Source of the DNA: Bacteroides uniformis
GTDB taxonomy: Bacteria; Bacillota; Clostridia; Oscillospirales; Ruminococcaceae
Assembly (NCBI GenBank): GCA_963615155.1
Contig: CAVEGP010000001.1
Location: 17,437-81,436, forward strand
Reading direction: 5' to 3'
DNA: 64,000 bases
In this document: positions 261 through 63,116 of the stretch, one piece after another
Layout: each line of letters begins with the position of its first letter
Numbering within the stretch: the stretch's first letter is position 1
The notes under the pieces: generated by a model
Told to the model about the DNA's origin: nothing
The model's input: only the letters and a program-made list of their open reading frames with translations
Databases searched by the model: none
Made by a program: the position numbers and the translations under genes

Positions 261-375
261 AACCTCTCCGTCAATGCTTGCGCATTGCCACCTCTCCTTG
301 TAGGAGAAGCTTTTTCGCTCTGCCAAAGGCTCCTCTGATAGGGGAGCTGTCGAGCGGATGCGAGACTGAGAGGTT
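261..375. repeat. Composite two-unit intergenic repeat (inverted pair, tails outward)
   Basis: AACCTCTCCGTCAATGCTTGCGCATTGCCACCTCTCC-TTGTA-GGAGAAGC ... TGCCAAAGGCTCCTCTGATAGGGGAGCTGTCGAGCGGATGCGAGACTGAGAGGTT; about 90 percent identical to 2085-2199; last bases overlap the rdgB stop codon. Confidence 0.9.
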
Positions 376-2084: not shown

Positions 2085-2199
2085 AACCTCTCCGTCAATG
2101 CTTACGCATTGCCCCCTCTCCTTGTAGGAGAGGCTTTTCCTCTTTGCCAAAGGCTCTCCTATCAGGAGAGCTGTCGAGCGACTGCGAGACTGAGAGGTT
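2085..2199. repeat. Composite two-unit intergenic repeat (same architecture as 261-375)
   Basis: 115 nt between smc stop and ftsY start; near-identical to 261-375. Confidence 0.9.
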
Positions 2200-11022: not shown

Positions 11023-11156
11023 AACCTCTCAGTCTCGCATCCGCTCGACAGCTCCCCTACCGAGGGGAGCCTTTGGCAAATAGAGACAGCTTGAATCGAC
11101 TACCAATGCCTCTCCTATCAGGAGAGGTGGCAATGCGAAGCATTGACGGAGAGGTT
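11023..11156. repeat. Composite two-unit intergenic repeat (opposite orientation to 261-375, longer spacer)
   Basis: AACCTCTCAGTCTCGCATCCGCTCGACAGCTCCCC...GGGGAGCCTTTGGCAAA - spacer - GCCTCTCCTATCAGGAGAGGTGGCAATGCGAAGCATTGACGGAGAGGTT. Confidence 0.9.
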
Positions 11157-14426: not shown

Positions 14427-14657
14427 GAATGCACCTCCAAACAATGATCCATAATGTTGCTGTTTTGGCATAGAAAACGCGGCCGCCCATTTTCAGGACA
14501 GCCGCGCAAAATTCACACATATCCGCACTTAGCTCAAAGAGATAACTGCGTTCTGAGTATAGCCCGGAGGAGCTTTACCCTCTCAAGGCGAGCGCGGCAC
14601 AGGCCGTAGCTGCTTTCTTTACTCGGTTATTTTACCACGTCCCGAAGGATGTGTCAA
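14427..14657 (-). promoter_or_regulatory. infC operon promoter plus leader with intrinsic terminator (L20-leader-type attenuator)
   Basis: TTGACA (14657-14652) - 17 nt - TAAAAT (14634-14629); about 195-nt leader ending in hairpin CGCGGCTGTCC/GGGCGGCCGCG (14507-14478) followed by UUUUC. Confidence 0.55.
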
Positions 14658-23758: not shown

Positions 23759-23834
23759 CGCTCGGTCTTCCAAACAAATTACCCGGCAAAACTTCCTGCC
23801 CGGCTCGATTTGTTGCGGTTTATATGATCCTACT

Positions 23835-24049
23835 AATCATTCAACGGGAGTCCGGCGTTCGCCGGTCGATTGCAGACCTCCCCGCCGTGGGCTCGACCCC
23901 GGAGGTTCGATGAGGAAGCGTGAATCCGGAGACAGGACACCCACCTGTCCGTAAGGGTAGGTTTGATTGACCGCAGACGACCGGGCGGGATTTTTATGAA
24001 ATTGCATCCACCGCCGTCCTCTGCAAAGAGGCAGTGTGTGGATTTTTTT
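23835..24049 (+). promoter_or_regulatory. Unclassified structured leader RNA with terminator/antiterminator alternatives (riboswitch-like)
   Basis: GC-rich non-coding tract with multiple hairpins, ending in a terminator (24007-24042 plus T7 at 24043-24049) about 30 nt before the ATG at 24079; mutually exclusive pairings CCCGCC(23881)/GGCGGG(23984)/ATCCACCGCC(24006). Confidence 0.45.
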
Positions 24050-24078: not shown

Positions 24079-24696
24079 ATGAAATCCGAACATCTGGTCG
24101 GGACTTCGATCCCGCGCTTCACCTATGACACCCCCACCACACCGGGAAATGATTTCTATGCCTTATGTGAAGGGGAGCGTCCGCTCTGCATGATATTCCT
24201 GCCCGGGTTCGACCACCCTGTGAGTCGGGAATATATCACCCGGTACCTGAAAACATTGCCCTCTCTGCGGGGTGTCCGGCTCGCCTGTGTCGTTCATTCA
24301 TCGGCGCAGAGCGTCGCCGCCGCTACCCATGGGTCGGAATTTCCCTTCCCGCTCATCTGCGACGAGCAGGGCGTCCTGTACAGCTATCTCGGTGTCGAGC
24401 AGAGCAAGGGACTTCTGAACTGGAGTTTTGCCGCCCAGAAGATTTATAAGGCCGCCAAGGACGCAGGCTATCAGTATGACCGCACCGCGCCGCAGATCCT
24501 GCCTTTGACCCTGATCGTCGGCTCGGAGGGAAAGATCCTGTTCACCCACTCCGGTCGCAGTCAGACCGATCTGCCCGAGGATTGCAGCTCCATCTGCGAG
24601 GTTGTCCGTGAAGTGGAAAAGGCTTCCTCCGGTAATTCCTCCGACCCGCATTGCTCCGACGAGACGCTCACTCTGCCCGATCTGGTGGATTGGTAA
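24079..24696 (+). CDS. Thioredoxin-fold, AhpC/TSA (peroxiredoxin)-like protein lacking the peroxidatic Cys
   Basis: Internal ATG of ORF 24034..24696. Layout P.F........F..L..G.P....FLPGFDHPVSREY...L......G....V..S......FPFPL..D..G..Y..LGV resembles AhpC/TSA, but the usual Cys position reads HPVS. Confidence 0.6.
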   Translation: MKSEHLVGTSIPRFTYDTPTTPGNDFYALCEGERPLCMIFLPGFDHPVSREYITRYLKTLPSLRGVRLACVVHSSAQSVAAATHGSEFPFPLICDEQGVLYSYLGVEQSKGLLNWSFAAQKIYKAAKDAGYQYDRTAPQILPLTLIVGSEGKILFTHSGRSQTDLPEDCSSICEVVREVEKASSGNSSDPHCSDETLTLPDLVDW

Positions 24697-24945
24697 CCCT
24701 CTCAGTCTGCTTCGCAGCCAGCTCCCCAAAAAAGGGGGAGCCATTGGCAAGCCGGTCAAGTCTATATACCAAATAAAAAAGTTGCCGGGCCTTGCGGTCT
24801 GGATTTACGGCATCGAACCAGTGAATCCGGACAACAGGGCTCGGCATTTTGTATTACCGAGTGCTTTGCTCAATTGCACAAGCATCTCCGATCTGCCAAA
24901 GGCTCTCCCTCTGGGAGAGCTGGCGCATATGCGCCTGAGAGGGCT
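24695..24945. repeat. Long MITE-like version of the repeat: two inverted units flanking a cargo with a bidirectional terminator
   Basis: Left unit 24695-24748, right unit 24893-24945; 9-bp perfect terminal inverted repeat CCCTCTCAG/CTGAGAGGG. Cargo hairpin GCCGGGCCT...AGGGCTCGGC (24784-24845) has U-rich runs on both strands. Contains the stop codons of both flanking genes. Confidence 0.85.
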
Positions 24946-25141
24946 ACTCCTCGTCGGCAAACAGTCCCGGGATGCCGCAGACCGCCGCCACACCCACCAG
25001 CGTAAAGACGACGCGTGACCAGATGGAGCTGCTGCCGCCCAGAAGCCAGCCGACAAAATCGAACTGAAACAGACCGACCAGCCCCCAGTTGATGCCTCCC
25101 ACGATCATCAAAACCAAGCAAATTTTATAAAAGGTCTGCAC
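24944..25141 (-). CDS. DUF378 family small membrane protein
   Basis: 65-aa ORF; LMIVGGINWGLVGLFQFDFV is the DUF378 signature; two TM helices. Confidence 0.8.
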   Translation of the reverse strand: MQTFYKICLVLMIVGGINWGLVGLFQFDFVGWLLGGSSSIWSRVVFTLVGVAAVCGIPGLFADEE

Positions 25142-28322: not shown

Positions 28323-29690
28323 ATGAGCATGTTTAACACCGGAGACATCCTCGAGACCATCGAGATGTTTACGCAGGATAATCTGGACGTGCGCACGGTC
28401 ACCATGGGCATCAGCCTGCTGGACTGCATCGATCCGGATCCCAAAAAAGCCTGCGAGAAGATCTACAACAAGATCACTACCAAAGCCGCAAACCTTGTTC
28501 CCGCCGTTGAGCATATCAGTGCGGAATACGGCATCCCCATCATCAACAAACGCATCAGTGTCACTCCCATTGCCATGCTGCTGGGCGCATGTCCGGACGC
28601 TGACCCTGTGGAGTTTGCCAAAACACTGGACGCCGCAGGCAAAAAAGTCGGCGTCAACTTCATCGGCGGCTATACTGCCCTTGTCCATAAGGGTTTCTCT
28701 GCTGGCGATCTTCGTCTCATCGAGTCCATCCCCCGCGCGCTGGCTGAGACGGACATCGTGTGCAGCTCGGTGAACATCGGCGCGACCAAAGCCGGCCTGA
28801 ATATGGATGCTATCAAGCTGATGGGCGAGGCGGTCAAAAAGGCTTCCGAGCTGACCGCCGACCGTCAGTGCATCGGTGCGGCAAAGCTGGTCGTGTTCTG
28901 CAACGCCCCCGAGGACAATCCCTTCATGGCAGGCGCATTCCACGGTCCCGGCGAGCCGGACTGTGAGATCCATGTCGGCGTTTCCGGTCCGGGTGCTGTC
29001 CGTGCGGCTCTGGCACGTCTGCCGAAGGATGCCCCCATCGACGCAGTTGCCGAGCTTGTCAAGCGCACCGCCTTCAAGATCACCCGTGTGGGACAGTTGG
29101 TCGCAAATCTCGCCTCGGACGCTCTGGGCGTTCCGGCAGGCATCATTGACCTCTCCCTTGCCCCGACTCCAGCCATCGGCGACAGCGTTGCCAACATCCT
29201 TGAGGAGATGGGTCTGGAGACCTGCGGCTGCTGCGGAACAACTGCCTGCCTTGCCCTTCTGAATGACGCTGTCAAGAAAGGCGGCGTCATGGCCTCCAAC
29301 CATGTCGGCGGTCTGTCTGGCGCATTCATTCCGGTCAGTGAGGACGACGGCATGATCCACGCCGCCGAGTCCGGCTGCCTGACGATCGAAAAGCTGGAAG
29401 CCATGACCGCTGTCTGCTCGGTCGGCATTGATATGGTCATCATCCCGGGCGACACGACCTCCTCCGTCATCAGCGCGCTGATCGCAGATGAGGCCGCCAT
29501 CGGCATGGTGAATAGCAAGACCACCGCCGTCCGTGTCATCCCCGCCATCGGTCGCAAGGCGGGCGAGATCTTGGACTTCGGCGGTCTGCTGGGCTACGGT
29601 CCTATTATGCCCGTCAACCAGCACGATCCCTCGGTGTTCATCAACCGTGGCGGTCGTCTGCCCGCTCCCATGCAGTCGCTCAAGAACTAA
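28323..29690 (+). CDS. UPF0210 (DUF711) family protein
   Basis: Internal ATG of ORF 28287..29690; ILETIEMF...[16 protein letters not shown] and ...[13 protein letters not shown] typical of UPF0210. Confidence 0.85.
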
Positions 29691-29740
29691 CCCCTCAGTC
29701 ACTTCGTGACAGCTCTCCTAGTAGGCGAGTCTTTGGCAAA
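29689..29740. repeat. Single unit of the two-hairpin repeat
   Basis: AACCCCTCAGTCACTTCGTGACAGCTCTCCTAGTAGGCGAGTCTTTGGCAAA; starts inside the TAA stop of the UPF0210 gene. Confidence 0.85.
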
Positions 29741-43381: not shown

Positions 43382-43417
43382 AAAAAAGAGCAAAACCCAA
43401 CGGTCTTGCTCCTTTTA
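43382..43417. terminator. Weak hairpin between convergent PBP and xpt genes
   Basis: GAGCAA-12 nt-TTGCTC flanked by A- and T-runs. Confidence 0.35.
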
Positions 43418-43425
43418 AAGAATCT

Positions 43426-49721: not shown

Positions 49722-49819
49722 CGCCCTCTCCGTCATCGCTGCGCGATGCCACCTCCCCCAAAGTGGGAGGCTTGGCTCTCCCTCTGGGAGAGCTGTAACC
49801 GAAGTTGACTGAGAGGGCG
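49722..49819. repeat. Compact two-unit version of the repeat between pgk and tpiA
   Basis: CGCCCTCTCCGTCATCGCTGCGCGATGCCACCTCCC-CCAAA-GTGGGAGGC TTG GCTCTCCCTCTGGGAGAGCTGTAACCGAAGTTGACTGAGAGGGCG; 9-bp perfect terminal inverted repeat. Confidence 0.88.
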
Positions 49820-51309: not shown

Positions 51310-51608
51310 GCCCTCTCAGTCTCGCGTTGCTCGACAGCTCTCCCAAAGGGAGAGCCACTGGCGTGCCGGGCAAGTCTGAGCAAATCGAAAAGAAACCATT
51401 TCACGCAAAAGCGATGGCCTTGCTGTTCCCACCAGCAACTATATAACCAAAACAGCCCTGCGGACTGGATTCAGAAGTATCTGAACCGAGACAACAGGGC
51501 TATCTTCTTTTATCTTTTGTAGAAACTTCGTGCGTCTTTTGTAGACTGCACCAATTTGCCAAGGGCTCTCCCTTTGGGAGAGCTGTCACCGCAGGTGACT
51601 GAGAGGGC
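51310..51608. repeat. Long MITE-like version of the repeat, homologous to 24695-24945
   Basis: Left unit 51310-51362, right unit 51556-51608; 12-bp perfect terminal inverted repeat GCCCTCTCAGTC/GACTGAGAGGGC. Cargo hairpin AGCCCTG...CAGGGCT (51454-51501) shares TGCGG.CTGGATT and GACAACAGGGCT with the 24784-24845 hairpin. Confidence 0.85.
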
Positions 51609-54889: not shown

Positions 54890-55264
54890 TTACTTGATCT
54901 CGACCTTTGCGCCAGCCTCTTCCAGCTTCTTCTTGATGTCCTCAGCCTCAGCCTTGGAAGCCTTCTCCTTGACAGCCTTGGGTGCGCCGTCAACGATAGC
55001 CTTAGCTTCCTTCAGGCCCAGGCCGGTGATCTCCTTGACCAGCTTGATGACCTGCATCTTGGTTGCGCCAGCCTCAGCGAGGATGACGTCGAACTCGGTC
55101 TTCTCTTCCTCAGCGGGAGCAGCAGCACCAGCAGCAGCGGGAGCAGCAGCAGCAACAGCGGAAACGCCGAACTCTTCGCAGTAGGTGTCGATCAGCTCTT
55201 TCAGCTCCAGAACGGTCAGGCCCTTAACGGACTCGATGATGGCAGTAATCTTCTCAGAAGCCAT
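54890..55264 (-). CDS. rplL: 50S ribosomal protein L7/L12
   Basis: 124-aa ORF; Ala-rich hinge and C-terminal [16 protein letters not shown]. Confidence 0.97.
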
Positions 55265-55848: not shown

Positions 55849-56053
55849 TCGGTTTCACCTCGTTTCAAAAAACTTGTATCGAAAACCGGAGTCGGCATGA
55901 AAAAAGCCTCTTTCCCGCACTTGGACGAGAAAGAGGCATAAAACAACTTTTACGCACGTTTCTCGGCAGGCGGCATAGCCTTACGCTGGACTCCAGCACC
56001 TGCTGTCTCAAAAACAGCATGGTTATTTTACCGCAAACGTGCGGAGTTGTCAA
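55849..56053 (-). promoter_or_regulatory. rplJL promoter and L10-leader-type attenuator
   Basis: TTGACA (56053-56048) - 17 nt - TAAAAT (56030-56025); about 170-nt leader with terminator GCCTCTTTC...GAAAGAGGC plus T6 (55937-55899). Confidence 0.55.
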
Positions 56054-56084
56054 TAGGTTTTCTGAATTTTTTCAAAATTCCTCT

Positions 56085-56138
56085 GTCAGGCTTCCTTAAT
56101 AGGGGAGCCGACTGTGCCAAAGCACAGACTAAGAGGTT
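56085..56138. repeat. Degenerate single unit of the two-hairpin repeat
   Basis: GGCTTCC-TTAATA-GGGGAGCCGACTGTGCCAAAGCACAGACTAAGAGGTT. Confidence 0.55.
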
Positions 56139-61159: not shown

Positions 61160-61227
61160 CGCCCTCTCAGGCGTTGCATCTGCCCCGCCAGCTCTCCCAA
61201 GAGCCAGGCGAGGCTGCCGGAGAGAGC
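61160..61227. repeat. Single unit of the two-hairpin repeat (enlarged first loop)
   Basis: CGCCCTCTCAGGCGTTGCATCTGCCCCGCCAGCTCTCCC...GGAGAGAGC between DUF1934 and argS. Confidence 0.75.
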
Positions 61228-61250: not shown

Positions 61251-63065
61251 ATGACTGATTTTGAAAAGACCTACCAGAATTACAACCCTCGGCAGGCTGC
61301 TCTGAACGAAGCGCGCGCTCTGCTGAGCGAGGCCGCAAAGGCAGCAATGTCCGACGGCACACTGCCCGAGGCAGAACTGCCCGCCTTCATCGTGGAAATT
61401 CCGGCTGACGTCAAAAACGGTGACATCGCTTCCAACCTTGCGATGGCTGGCGCGCGCACCTGGCACAAAGCCCCCAAGATGATCGCCGACGCGCTGCTGG
61501 CACATCTGCCCTCCCTCGAGAACAGCGTATTCTCCAAGGTAGAAGTTGCCGGACCGGGCTTCATCAACCTGTTCCTCGCTCCGTCCTTCTGGGCCGGCGT
61601 GGTGCTGGGCGCATGTGCCAACACCGAGTATGGACGCACCGATTACGGCAAGGGTGCGAAGTACAACGTCGAGTTCGTTTCCGCCAACCCAACCGGTCCG
61701 ATGCATATGGGCAACGCGCGCGGCGGCGCACTGGGCGACTGCCTTGCCGCTGTCCTTGACTGGGCCGGTCATGATGTGACCCGTGAGTTCTACATCAACG
61801 ACGCAGGCAACCAGATCCAGAAGTTCGGTAAGAGCCTCGCCGTCCGTTATCTCCAGCAGTTCTGCGGCGAAGAGGCTTATCCCCTGCCCAGGGAGTGCTA
61901 TCAGGGCGGTGACATCAAGGTTCTTGCGGGCGAGTTTGCCGAGATCCACGGCGATGAATATGTTGCGTCCTGTCAGGGAATGGACGAAGAGACGCTGTTC
62001 GAGAGCGACGCTTTTGCCACTCTGAAGGACGCTCTGGTCTCCTACGCTCTCCCCAAAAACATCGCCGCCTTGAAGCGTGACCTTGGCAAGTACCGCATTG
62101 ATTACGACGTCTGGTTCCACGAGAGCACCCTGCACGAGTCCGGTGCGGTTCTGGCGGTCGTGGACAAGCTGCTCGAGCTGGGCGCATGCTACAAGACAGA
62201 AGATGGTGCTGTCATGTACCGCAGCGCACAGTATGCCGCTAAGTACGGCACGGTCAACAAAAAGAAGACCGACGACGGCTCCGAAGAGGAAGCCAAGGAC
62301 GAAGTCCTCGTTCGCGCAAACGGCATCCCGACCTACTTTGCCGCCGACATCGCTTACCATTATGATAAGCTGGCGACCCGTGGCTTCGTGAAGGCCATCG
62401 ACGTCTGGGGCGCAGACCACCACGGCCACGTTGCCCGTATGAAGGGCGCGATGGACGCCATCGGTCTGGACGGCAATCAGCTGGACGTCGTGCTGATGCA
62501 GATGGTCAACCTGATGCGTGACGGCCAGCCCGTCCGCATGTCCAAGCGTACCGGCAACGCCATCACCCTGACGGACCTGTTGGAGGAAGTGCCCATCGAC
62601 AGCGCACGTTTCCTCTTCAACATGCACGACGCAGGCAGCGGCATTGACTTTGACCTTGATCAGGCAGTCAAGACCGACAACGACAACCCTGTCTACTACG
62701 TCCAGTATGCGCACGCTCGTATCTGCTCCATCCTCAAAAAGATGGAGAGCGAGGGCGTTCGTTTTGCCGGTGCGGAGAAGGTCGATGCTTCCCTACTGAC
62801 CGAGCCGTCCGAGATGGATCTCATCCGGATGCTGGCAGCCTTCCCGCAGGAGATCGTCATGGCGGCAGAGAAATACGACCCCAGCCGTATCAATCGCTTC
62901 GTCATCGACCTTGCAAGTGCATTCCACCGCTTCTACGGCAACTGCCGCATTCAGGGCGCAGACCCCGCTGTTCAGCAGGCACGTCTGGCTCTCTGCATCG
63001 GTGTGAAGAACGTCATCTTCAACGTCCTGACTATGTTCAAGATCAACGTCCCCGAGAAGATGTAA
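61251..63065 (+). CDS. argS: Arginine--tRNA ligase
   Basis: ATG 61251 within ORF 61038..63065; SANPTGPMHMGNARG (HIGH), MSKRTG (KMSK) class I motifs. Confidence 0.96.
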   Translation: MTDFEKTYQNYNPRQAALNEARALLSEAAKAAMSDGTLPEAELPAFIVEIPADVKNGDIASNLAMAGARTWHKAPKMIADALLAHLPSLENSVFSKVEVAGPGFINLFLAPSFWAGVVLGACANTEYGRTDYGKGAKYNVEFVSANPTGPMHMGNARGGALGDCLAAVLDWAGHDVTREFYINDAGNQIQKFGKSLAVRYLQQFCGEEAYPLPRECYQGGDIKVLAGEFAEIHGDEYVASCQGMDEETLFESDAFATLKDALVSYALPKNIAALKRDLGKYRIDYDVWFHESTLHESGAVLAVVDKLLELGACYKTEDGAVMYRSAQYAAKYGTVNKKKTDDGSEEEAKDEVLVRANGIPTYFAADIAYHYDKLATRGFVKAIDVWGADHHGHVARMKGAMDAIGLDGNQLDVVLMQMVNLMRDGQPVRMSKRTGNAITLTDLLEEVPIDSARFLFNMHDAGSGIDFDLDQAVKTDNDNPVYYVQYAHARICSILKKMESEGVRFAGAEKVDASLLTEPSEMDLIRMLAAFPQEIVMAAEKYDPSRINRFVIDLASAFHRFYGNCRIQGADPAVQQARLALCIGVKNVIFNVLTMFKINVPEKM

Positions 63066-63113
63066 GCATAAAAACAAGGAGCTGTGCCTTGGCACAGCTC
63101 CTTGTTTTTATGC
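63066..63113. terminator. Bidirectional terminator between argS and the ABC ATPase gene
   Basis: GCATAAAAACAAGGAGCTGTGCC-TTGG-CACAGCTCCTTGTTTTTATGC perfect long hairpin. Confidence 0.9.
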
Positions 63114-63116
63114 TTT

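Follow-up and report, generated by a model that had tools for sequence, protein, structure and literature searches.

What are the short repeats that stand between so many genes of a Faecalibacterium-like gut bacterium, and how did they get there? We analyzed a stretch of 64 kb (referred to below, at its full length, as the window) in which two-hairpin repeat units of about 50 nt, mostly in inverted pairs, recur. The elements that they form belong with REP/BIME repeats, being short, non-coding and non-autonomous. The explanation that we favor as a whole, and hold to be moderately probable, is a mobile, horizontally spread, non-autonomous REP/BIME-like family which is copied in trans and punctuates transcripts.

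Repeat units and their two types

Every unit begins with a head, GCCAAGG or CCCTTGG, followed by hairpin 1, a TG linker, hairpin 2 and a purine tail. Hairpin 1, CTCTCC-loop-GGAGAG, is nearly invariant. Hairpin 2 has a stem of 5-9 bp which is free in sequence and mostly closed by a GNA triloop, and the tail reads C-(T/G)-GAGAGG-(G/T)(C/T). The pattern proposed in a preliminary description of this DNA, GGAGAGCTG-N10-25-GAGAGG, was matched 6 times where 0.03 matches were expected; a stricter pattern to which hairpin 1 had been added was matched 7 times against an expectation of 0.00.

A covariance model (R1) was trained on 14 units of the window and used with filters off. It recovered the set of the preliminary description, 15 units at nine intergenic loci, with E-values from 7e-20 to 8e-7, and matches below these were either hairpin-1 self-matches or had E >= 0.09. 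Both hairpins are backed by covariation: 86% of cells were paired, compared with 38-51% for slid partners, and double-sided (compensatory) changes were seen at seven base pairs. Among the matches listed, 406 units contained 252 distinct sequences of hairpin 2, which was fully paired in 52% of them against 1.5% after shuffling; its loop was GAA, GCA, GTA or GGA in 132 of 212. Wobble-pair counts (G*T versus A*C) in these matches were 42 to 25 for hairpin 1 and 81 to 98 for hairpin 2.

The units fall into two types, GAG-G-TG ... C-G-GAGAGG (type A) and GAG-C-TG ... C-T-GAGAGG (type B). They are split by a coupled triple of bases, which among the matches listed was (G,C,T) in 266 cases, (C,G,G) in 137 and anything else in only 7 of 410. 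This triple is the sole difference between A and B in those matches, all remaining polymorphisms being shared. At the foot of hairpin 2 type A has GTGG, and type B, which makes up about two thirds of the units among the matches listed, has CTGT or CTGG.

Inverted pairs lying no more than 60 nt apart joined an A to a B unit in 46 of 53 cases among the matches listed (about 41% expected at random), and did so in both tails-out and tails-in polarity. This alternation of unit types in inverted pairs is a BIME-like trait that lay beyond the view of the preliminary description. Elements are typically inverted A+B doublets, 95-135 nt in length, and a longer composite form holds a conserved cargo of 145-195 nt between its units; the lengths of the spacers between paired units peak near 22 nt and near 162 nt among the matches listed. 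Doublets and composites are bounded by inverted units, that is, by terminal inverted repeats such as TCGCCCTCTC...GAGAGGGCGA. The AACC...GGTT ends originally attributed to all elements are present in some, whereas several end in TCGCCCTCTC...GAGAGGGCGA or in ...GAGAGGGCTA. The statement that paired units always have their tails outward holds for all six pairs of the window but not for the wider family, where 26 pairs were tails-in and 43 tails-out (pairs within 100 nt among the matches listed).

Elements of the window

One A+B doublet, with heads inward, occupies 261-375 (R1 scores of 58.6 and 67.7 bits). Its type A unit (261-317, minus strand; GTG..CGGAGAGG) and type B unit (321-375, plus strand; CTG..CTGAGAGG) have as neighbors the stop of a Ham1-family gene (374-376) and a yhbY-like start (210). 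A copy of this doublet at 2085-2199 (57 and 70 bits; direct-repeat family D1) lies between smc and ftsY and consists of A at 2085-2141 (minus) and B at 2145-2199 (plus). The two copies are identical in 103 of 116 aligned columns (88.8%), close to the 90% estimated initially. Alignment also confirmed that the element at 11023-11156 (66.6 and 69.4 bits), between dprA and topA, is the doublet of 261-375 reversed, with a spacer about 20 nt longer; it is made up of B at 11023-11078 (minus) and A at 11101-11156 (plus) and contains inverted repeats I1 and I5 at 92-93%. One doublet is thus present in three copies within 11 kb, with 77-89% identity over the whole length and a nearly identical B unit. 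A compact A+B doublet at 49723-49818 (55.4 and 43.6 bits), with A at 49723-49777 (minus) and B at 49769-49818 (plus), has the terminator hairpin of pgk on one side and the ribosome-binding site of tpi on the other.

Two composites were found, each with a B unit on either side of its cargo. The composite at 24696-24944 (59.5 and 63.4 bits) consists of B at 24696-24749 (minus), a 144-nt cargo at 24750-24893 and B at 24894-24944 (plus). It fills a convergent spacer, its tails abutting the stops of an AhpC-like gene (24694-24696) and a DUF378 gene (24944-24946), and folds into a long single-stranded DNA hairpin (z = -7.4). The second, at 51310-51608 (60.6 and 65.6 bits; inverted repeat I11, 93%), has B at 51310-51363 (minus), a 193-nt cargo at 51364-51556 and B at 51557-51608 (plus); its neighbors are pgk and a small gene of the ribbon-helix-helix type (stop 51611). 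Units do flank cargo of the lengths first given, and the two cargos are homologous to one another; that of 24696-24944 is also homologous to locus L093.

The remaining loci hold single units. A type B unit at 29689-29738 (minus; 58.4 bits) is antisense to its plus-strand neighbors, with its tail overlapping the stop of a DUF711 gene (29688-29690) and spoIIR downstream. Another type B unit, with a degenerate hairpin 1, at 61161-61212 (minus; 28.6 bits, E = 8e-7), is antisense to a DUF1934 gene and argS, both on the plus strand. The degenerate unit at 56082-56138 (plus; CCG..CTAAGAGG; 45 bits) is antisense to rplA and rplJ and is located between the rplA stop and the L10 leader (55891-56030).

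All 15 units are intergenic, in agreement with the preliminary description, and four of them reach 1-2 nt into a stop codon. With a coding fraction of 0.909, the units alone account for about 14% of the intergenic DNA of the window (811 of 5804 nt), a share that is higher when cargo and spacers are counted. Eight loci are in co-directional spacers, one is in a convergent spacer, and none of the five divergent spacers contains a unit. Among the matches listed, single units were antisense to genes in 66 cases and sense in 17, and a reverse-complement stop triplet was found 1 nt past the tail in 13%, against a background of 3-4%. Flank logos of these matches show only two bases after the tail and a weak (T/A)N(A/G)(C/A) adjoining it, with no fixed target tetranucleotide.

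Distribution among hosts, phages and plasmids

The motif extends well beyond the window, units being contained in at least 119 genome stretches and at least 120 viral stretches. On the Bacillota side they were found in Faecalibacterium, Oscillospiraceae, Faecousia, Acutalibacteraceae, Ruminococcus, Christensenellales, Lachnospiraceae and Negativicutes, and the family occurs across the Oscillospirales. Units are also present in many gut phage contigs, in Caulobacter, where the copies are A+B pairs of about 135 nt, and on Sphingomonas plasmids; some units of the window and of Sphingomonas share an identical hairpin 2. A plasmid of Haliovirga abyssi (Fusobacteriota) carries a single doublet of 55% GC within DNA of 25% GC. 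The elements are exchanged among hosts, phages and plasmids, across phylum boundaries.

Gain and loss of elements

Orthologous intergenic sites have gained and lost elements, and copying also takes place within a genome. The comparison of strains for presence/absence polymorphism, suggested at the outset, found orthologous sites in related strains to be empty or independently filled. The pgk-tpi spacer was compared in 81 related metagenome loci and could be measured in 79, in most of which it was unit-free and 81-107 nt long; it has been filled independently in the lineage of the window, in L264 and in L279-L282. Conversely, L206 has three units at a site where the spacer of the window is empty (44 nt). 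Exact-protein matches to the genes of the window came from the same strain only and were uninformative on polymorphism.

Phage contigs provided many filled/empty pairs with flanks 96-100% identical. In the 18 filled/empty pairs among the matches listed whose flanks agreed at 96% of positions or more, a 6-bp repeat was seen once, no repeat once, and a replacement in all others. The clean insertion c245 is flanked by the 6-bp direct repeat GAAGGG, and the clean insertion c288 has no target duplication. An automated filled/empty comparison across all loci listed gave no rule for a target duplication of fixed length. Most comparisons look like one stretch swapped for another rather than a clean insertion (c130, c78, c81, c156), so homologous recombination rather than transposition could account for part of the polymorphism.

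Candidates for the mobilizing enzyme

As already noted in the preliminary description, the window has no transposase: a Pfam search detected no such domain in 59 ORF translations (58 predicted genes and one overlapping antisense ORF), and tblastn with approximate Y1 transposase queries detected none there either. Tails-out pairs spaced 300-5000 nt apart, of which there were nine among the matches listed, enclosed phage or housekeeping genes and no transposase. When 2283 ORFs from the 119 genome loci listed were clustered, no transposase recurred near the units, only ABC/MATE transporter paralogues.

The tblastn search did reveal two RAYT-like genes, and the units might be canonical REPs moved by a host-encoded RAYT-like Y1 transposase (class 2, YIxNNP-type). 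Contigs L229 and L148 contain units together with Y1 genes which have DHIH and YI(E/Q)NNP motifs and score 53-63 bits against NCBIfam REP_Tyr_transpos; a homologue is called RayT in one source. The GTGG foot of hairpin 2 in type A and the inverted pairing, which resembles REPINs, point the same way, canonical REPs having a conserved 5' GT[AG]G at the hairpin foot (PMC6006769). However, RAYT-like genes of unit-bearing taxa carry a different, canonical GTAG repeat: they are bordered by GTAGGGG..CCCC(CTAC) 'double-foot' REPs of their own, which also interrupt them in frame. This fits tnpA-REP subclass 2.4, in which each gene has its own cognate REP family (PMC6006769). None of 18 RAYT-like loci had a two-hairpin unit within 2-3 kb, several of the genes sit in ruvC-ruvA-ruvB without a spacer, the window has 15 units and no GTAGGGG REP, and type B units have CTG(T/G) in place of GT[AG]G. 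The lead to a RAYT given in the preliminary description therefore did not hold up, these Y1 genes were dropped as the mobilizer, and we regard this origin of the units as highly improbable.

Nature of the elements

In the favored explanation, the elements would be copied by a trans-acting enzyme that recognizes the folded single strand, and not by a cut-and-paste DDE transposase. Such copying is suggested by the existence of single units, tails-in pairs and tails-out pairs alike, by junctions without regular target duplication, and by the loops of hairpin 2, which are of the type found in very stable DNA mini-hairpins. Resident elements, placed directly past stop codons and mostly in co-directional gene strings, would be co-transcribed and may serve as structural punctuation of transcripts, as REPs do. 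By the same analogy they could block 3' exonucleases or stall termination of translation at the upstream gene, and they may be recombination hot spots.

The parallel to REP/BIME or MITE elements drawn in the preliminary description stands as regards the family, its restriction to intergenic DNA and the lack of a transposase in the window; a plain MITE is weakened by inconsistent target duplications. If the elements were ordinary MITEs, doublets and composites would be internally deleted IS copies with the units as their ends, moved by DDE cut-and-paste. The composites of 250-300 nt, with unit-length terminal inverted repeats and conserved cargo, do fold into one long hairpin, c245 has its 6-bp direct repeat on both sides, and the family is found in phages, as are reported MITEs (PMC11602168). 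Like Correia/NEMIS, RUP and ERIC elements, those described here are non-autonomous, intergenic, 100-300 nt long and capable of folding into long hairpins. Against this, no parent IS was found among the loci examined: transposases were lacking in the nine long tails-out pairs listed, in the window and as a recurrent neighbor of the units. Half-elements are found by themselves as well as in pairs of either polarity, and neither single units nor tails-in pairs are rare; c288 was inserted without duplication and junctions are mostly irregular; and most doublets join two unit types, not two copies of one end. We consider an origin as ordinary MITEs distinctly improbable. It is less probable still that the units are non-mobile recombination or boundary modules, spread solely by homologous exchange of whole intergenic regions. 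The predominance of replacement, or of unit-for-unit swaps at one site (c130, c78, c81, c156), in filled/empty comparisons is what such exchange would leave. It does not account for three doublet copies between unrelated genes within 11 kb, for a lone GC-rich doublet in AT-rich Fusobacteriota DNA, or for the identical hairpin 2 in units of the window and of Sphingomonas, as these copies have no flanking homology usable for recombination.

The elements could also be primarily a structured RNA, either a small RNA or an mRNA element acting in cis, akin to whalefall-1 (RF01762); their spread would then reflect selection for an RNA function, with mobility secondary. No Rfam family reached threshold on the units when the whole window was scanned in gathering and in E-value mode. 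Whalefall-1 was the sole family with repeated matches to units, which came up in small scans, in L081, L033, L163, L172 and the window at 11106-11156; the best scores were 20.5, 19.8, 18.8, 17.3 and 14.3 bits. Its layout is the same, a CUCUCC/GGAGAG hairpin being followed by a short linker, a variable second hairpin and a 3' purine tail (Weinberg et al. 2010, PMC2864571), and its authors rated it as certainly an RNA (PMC2864571). The orientation skew of units relative to genes (66 to 17 among the matches listed), the abutment on stop codons and the covarying hairpins agree with an RNA. Orientation bias in the window tracks transcription and not replication (three units only), which points to selection at the RNA level; it is not predicted by the argument from DNA hairpins and counts against the favored explanation. 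Yet all the matches are well under the 37-bit cut-off of the family, whose tail is GGUGAGGAC where that of the units is GAGAGG, and whalefall-1 is known from a whale-fall metagenome alone, described as a stand-alone small RNA and not a dispersed, paired mobile repeat (PMC2864571). Single units are mostly antisense, so that the mRNA usually carries the strand opposite to whalefall-1, while doublets put both strands into every transcript. The GNA triloops of hairpin 2 are not the RNA-typical GNRA or UUCG, and presence/absence differences between close strains, together with the occurrence in phages and an AT-rich plasmid, are more in keeping with a selfish element than with a conserved regulator. 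An RNA module is therefore, in our judgement, unlikely.

A possible triple helix

Reading the sequences of the units suggests a structure which we put forward with considerable doubt, namely that a unit, as single-stranded DNA, may fold into an intramolecular triple helix of the purine motif. In this fold the tail would lie as a third strand in the groove of hairpin 1, led back there by hairpin 2 as a linker, and types A and B would represent two ways of making the same base triple. The tail mirrors the purine arm of hairpin 1 (GGGAGAG/GAGAGGG and GGGGGAG/GAGGGGG; GGGGAGG/GGAGGGG in Sphingomonas). Among the matches listed, mirror matches averaged 6.51 of 7 compared with 6.19 for permuted tails, and none of 2000 permutations reached the observed value. 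The polarity and register of the mirror are those that G*G-C and A*A-T triplets require. G*G-C and T*C-G triplets recognize a GC pair and an inverted CG pair, respectively, and the coupled triple, (C,G,G) or (G,C,T), could be read as G*G-C or T*C-G. On the unit strand, G*A mismatches exceeded C*T by 345 to 56 among the matches listed, which was counted in favor of a triplex; against it, A is opposite the G-C pair of the central triplet in 92 of 243 distinct units among the matches listed. Shared descent could also have produced the mirror pattern. Watson-Crick pairing of the tail with arm 1, which predicts a direct repeat of arm 2, was rejected: in the two main consensus classes it fits 5 of 7 positions and the mirror 7 of 7.

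Relation to known systems

Full-text literature searches found no name for the unit family. Integron attC sites were dismissed, as the ends are AACCTCTC...GAGAGGTT plus variable bases instead of RYYYAAC/GTTRRRY cores and the flanks are core housekeeping genes. The ends of dif sites and group II introns were ruled out on sequence.

The elements share with REP/BIME of Enterobacteria (PU types Y, Z1 and Z2; REPINs) short GC-rich imperfect palindromes restricted to intergenic DNA, a position just past stop codons inside operons, two inverted alternating subtypes arranged head-to-head and tail-to-tail, the doublet as the copied unit, and a comparable density, one locus per 7 kb here. In BIMEs, specific motifs of the linkers are bound by IHF or gyrase. 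In contrast to REPs, the units have two hairpins and a conserved purine tail. Three further differences count against the best explanation: one unit consensus is conserved across several phyla and phages, whereas REPs are species-specific; type B is devoid of the GT[AG]G foot of canonical REPs (PMC6006769); and no enzyme was tied to the units, RAYT-like Y1 genes bearing another repeat and no REPtron being found at the 18 RAYT-like loci.

Palindrome-associated elements derived from IS200/IS605 (HUH Y1) resemble those described here in their recognition, presumed for the present elements, by hairpins rather than inverted ends, in having no regular target duplication and in the covariation of hairpin-foot nucleotides with a distal position. 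In IS608 such foot-distal coupling, in work ascribed to Barabas et al. in 2008, reportedly encodes the choice of cleavage site. The present elements differ in that no tnpA/tnpB partner was found, their ends are inverted copies of each other, and a fixed target tetranucleotide is replaced by the weak preference next to the tail. The CIR elements of Caulobacter (Chen & Shapiro 2003, as summarized in PMC2229807) are intergenic, about 110 nt long, conserved in alphaproteobacteria and marked by GANTC in a loop. By this summary, they are alike in having two arms joined by a linker and in being intergenic (PMC2229807), but GANTC is absent from the Caulobacter copies displayed.

Faecalibacterium and its relatives rank among the most abundant human gut bacteria, and in the window the family forms a sizeable part of the intergenic DNA. 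Repeats of this kind break metagenome assemblies, give rise to spurious small ORFs and can mimic signals of horizontal transfer; the differences between strains could make the elements useful for strain typing. The family combines a BIME grammar with a range of several phyla, phages and plasmids, and no cognate transposase was found at the loci examined. Since canonical REP/RAYT pairs are lineage-specific, it points to a different way of copying short structured DNA. The likeness to whalefall-1 suggests that at least one orphan metagenomic "small RNA" motif may be a dispersed DNA repeat.

A dense repeat family in the window

The repeat family is real, dense, mobile, horizontally spread and REP/BIME-like. 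A covariance model built from 14 window units (R1; alignment A2), run with filters off, returned the 15 units that the preliminary description had placed at 9 loci, with E values from 7e-20 to 8e-7, and this search detected no further credible unit in the window. The pattern proposed there for counting copies gave 6 matches against 0.03 expected, and a stricter pattern including hairpin 1 gave 7 against 0 expected. Paired cells amounted to 86% in the alignment of 14 units, compared with 38-51% when the partners were slid, and in 7 base pairs both sides had changed. Reading of the sequence bore out the description of 261-375 and 2085-2199, two copies that proved to be 88.8% identical, and 11023-11156 is indeed a doublet (an inverted pair of units) of the 261-375 type, reversed and with a longer spacer. 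It had further been claimed that every copy is intergenic and that no transposase is present: all 15 units lie between genes, and no transposase domain was found in the window genes.

The window is 56% GC and 91% coding. It carries yhbY, a Ham1-family gene, ftsY, smc, rnc, plsX, topA, dprA, rplT, infC and addAB, together with spoIIR, ftsZ, ftsW, a penicillin-binding protein gene, gpmI, tpi and pgk, as well as rplL, rplJ, rplA, rplK, nusG, secE, ddl and argS, all of them core genes. It is syntenic with L206, a metagenome-assembled Faecalibacterium genome, at 76-85% nucleotide identity. The PGK protein shares 94-99% identity with those of human-gut contigs, and the TPI protein has an identical entry in two NCBI assemblies. 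Eight of the unit loci are in co-directional spacers and one is in a convergent spacer, while none of the five divergent spacers is occupied. At five loci the tail adjoins the upstream gene's stop codon, and the junction reads TAA or TAG and then CC(C)TCTC.

Unit structure and the two unit types

Each unit consists of a head (GCCAAGG or CCCTTGG), hairpin 1 (CTCTCC, loop, GGAGAG), TG, hairpin 2 and C-(T/G)-GAGAGG-(G/T)(C/T); no conservation was found outside these limits, from the head to the post-tail bases. Among the matches listed, hairpin 2 is hypervariable (252 sequences in 406 units), and 52% of units have it perfectly paired, compared with 1.5% when the sequences are shuffled. GNA triloops account for 132 of 212 hairpin-2 loops in the same set, in which GNRA loops are rare and UUCG loops absent. 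GNA triloops belong to the class of loop seen in DNA hairpins of unusual stability, such as the d(GCGAAGC) mini-hairpin.

Type B units read GAG-C-TG..C-T-GAGAGG and type A units GAG-G-TG..C-G-GAGAGG, and the arm-1 base paired with the base at the foot of hairpin 1 varies along with the type. The resulting triples were (G,C,T) in 266 units, (C,G,G) in 137 and other combinations in 7 (n=410, among the matches listed). Variants of head, arm 2, tail and post-tail were found in both types, so A and B are alternative states of a single coupled site rather than deep lineages. Among the pairs listed, 46 of 53 inverted pairs spaced by no more than 60 nt combine A with B, in either polarity.

Spacer lengths in the listed pairs fall into two groups, at about 22 nt and about 162 nt. 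Elements of the longer class are a recurring composite whose cargo is conserved, and a second cargo type is common to both window composites and the comparison stretch L093. The whole composite element has a single long hairpin fold (z = -7.4). In two phage lineages (L043:982-1033 and L105:9529-9581) a unit is enclosed, with similar spacers, by the inverted repeat GG(G)CGCA(C/T)...(G/A)TGCGCC(C); this composite, the third kind seen, measures about 100-110 nt.

Among the matches listed, single units between co-directional genes lie antisense to those genes in 66 cases and sense in 17, as judged with a crude gene caller. The three window singles fit this bias, with both orientations represented among them. 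GC skew is negative throughout the window, which suggests that it is one replichore; in this small sample of three, unit orientation bias tracks transcription. The frequency of reverse-complement stop triplets is highest 1 nt past the tail (13% versus 3-4%). G*A mismatches predominate on the unit strand, but arise at few conserved positions.

Because the tail mirrors the purine arm of hairpin 1, and the A/B triple is compatible with G*G-C and T*C-G triplets, folding of the unit into an intramolecular purine-motif triplex is conceivable from its sequence, if improbable.

Distribution among hosts, phages and plasmids

Scans of genome and virus collections yielded at least 239 stretches, 216 of which were supported by an independent profile. 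The remainder, mostly from GC-rich Proteobacteria and Actinobacteria among the matches listed, were taken as chance matches. Confirmed hosts among the matches listed comprise Faecalibacterium, Oscillospiraceae, Faecousia, Acutalibacteraceae, Ruminococcus, Christensenellales and Lachnospiraceae, the Negativicutes Veillonellaceae, Phascolarctobacterium and Selenomonadales, and Caulobacter, the last with A+B pairs. The doublet is present in 34 GenBank "Bacteriophage sp." records from human faeces. Units also occur on Sphingomonas and Novosphingobium plasmids, one of them with the same hairpin 2 as window unit 49723-49777. On plasmid pHIC of Haliovirga abyssi (NZ_AP027060.1, Fusobacteriota) a lone A+B doublet lies between thiH and the thiazole synthase gene thiG (L330:14999-15092). 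Since this doublet has 55% GC in surroundings of 25% GC, it must have arrived horizontally, and it is a clear example of a bare doublet acquired across phyla.

Gain and loss at sites

Of 81 pgk loci from related strains, 79 had a measurable pgk-tpi spacer, which is mostly 81-107 nt long and without a unit; independent fillings of this spacer occurred in L264, in L279-L282 and in the lineage of the window. Three units are present at L206:5257-5440, and the same convergent spacer in the window (43382-43425), flanked in the same gene order by penicillin-binding protein and phosphoribosyltransferase genes, is an empty 44 nt. Phage contigs provided 18 filled/empty pairs with flanks 96-100% identical. 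One of these shows a 6-bp duplication and another lacks any; the rest are replacements, partial units or unit-for-unit swaps. Comparison of L034:11730-12107 with L085:6748-7012 revealed an extra 113-nt insertion of unrelated sequence within arm 1 of hairpin 1, and units can therefore serve as targets of another small element.

Search for a mobilising enzyme

No junction rule of the DDE-transposase type was found among the 18 phage-contig pairs, and no transposase-like genes were found between long unit pairs or recurring near units. RAYT-like Y1 genes, candidate REP transposases, were detected in L229 and L148 by tblastn with Y1 query sequences, and belong to a family of 2309 homologues. In Oscillospiraceae these genes are flanked by a canonical "double-foot" REP, GTAGGGG..CCCC(CTAC) (L229:5540-5565; L148:1754-1786; L322-L339), which also occurs in frame inside the gene (L336:1475-2365), where it is translated as GTSRAPSPT. 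Such an arrangement of REPs around and in a tnpA-REP gene has been described for subclass 2.4 (PMC6006769). The RAYT-like Y1 enzyme is not a likely mobiliser of the two-hairpin units, because it has a repeat of its own, no two-hairpin units lie near the genes examined, and GTAGGGG..CCCC(CTAC) REPs are missing from the window. We infer that the units would be copied via a folded single strand by an enzyme acting in trans, and that resident units may exert REP-like effects on operon mRNAs.

In several gut contigs (L324-L329, L332-L334) a RAYT-like Y1 gene is embedded in the Holliday-junction operon, where it follows ruvC and ruvA and precedes ruvB, with only a few bases between the genes. It looks like a single-strand DNA nuclease that has been domesticated within a recombination operon.

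Comparison with known families

REP/BIME is the nearest kind: like it, the family consists of palindromes located between genes and next to stop codons on their downstream side, has two subtypes that alternate in inverted pairs, and is copied as doublets. Unlike canonical REPs, type B lacks the GT[AG]G foot, no REPtron (a tnpA-REP gene flanked by its own REPs) was found, and the family is not species-specific; unlike MITEs, there is no fixed target duplication. The sole named sequence family with the layout of the unit is whalefall-1 (Rfam RF01762), which was described from a whale-fall metagenome as an orphan small RNA (PMC2864571) and repeatedly matched units at 14-20 bits, under the cut-off of 37. 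No published name for the two-hairpin family was found in full-text literature searches. The structure, A/B pairing rule, polymorphism, taxonomic range and absence of an associated transposase are direct observations. The family is marked by an unusual two-hairpin-plus-tail unit and by its strict A/B code.

Other features of the window

A 6S (SsrS) RNA gene was identified at 23790-23995 on the plus strand (65.8 bits, cut-off 46.4), in the divergent spacer upstream of an AhpC-like gene. On the minus strand there are an L10 leader at 55891-56030 (42.7 bits, slightly below the cut-off of 44) and a weak L20 leader at 14465-14621 (32 bits); the degenerate unit 56082-56138 is located between the rplA stop codon and the L10 leader. 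Between argS and an ABC ATPase gene, which converge, lies a perfect inverted repeat of 25 nt with a 2-nt loop (63064-63115); it has the look of a bidirectional terminator and has no relation to the two-hairpin family. Short CAGCAG-type direct repeats within rplL (55111-55168) correspond on the coding strand to the Ala-rich hinge and are ordinary.
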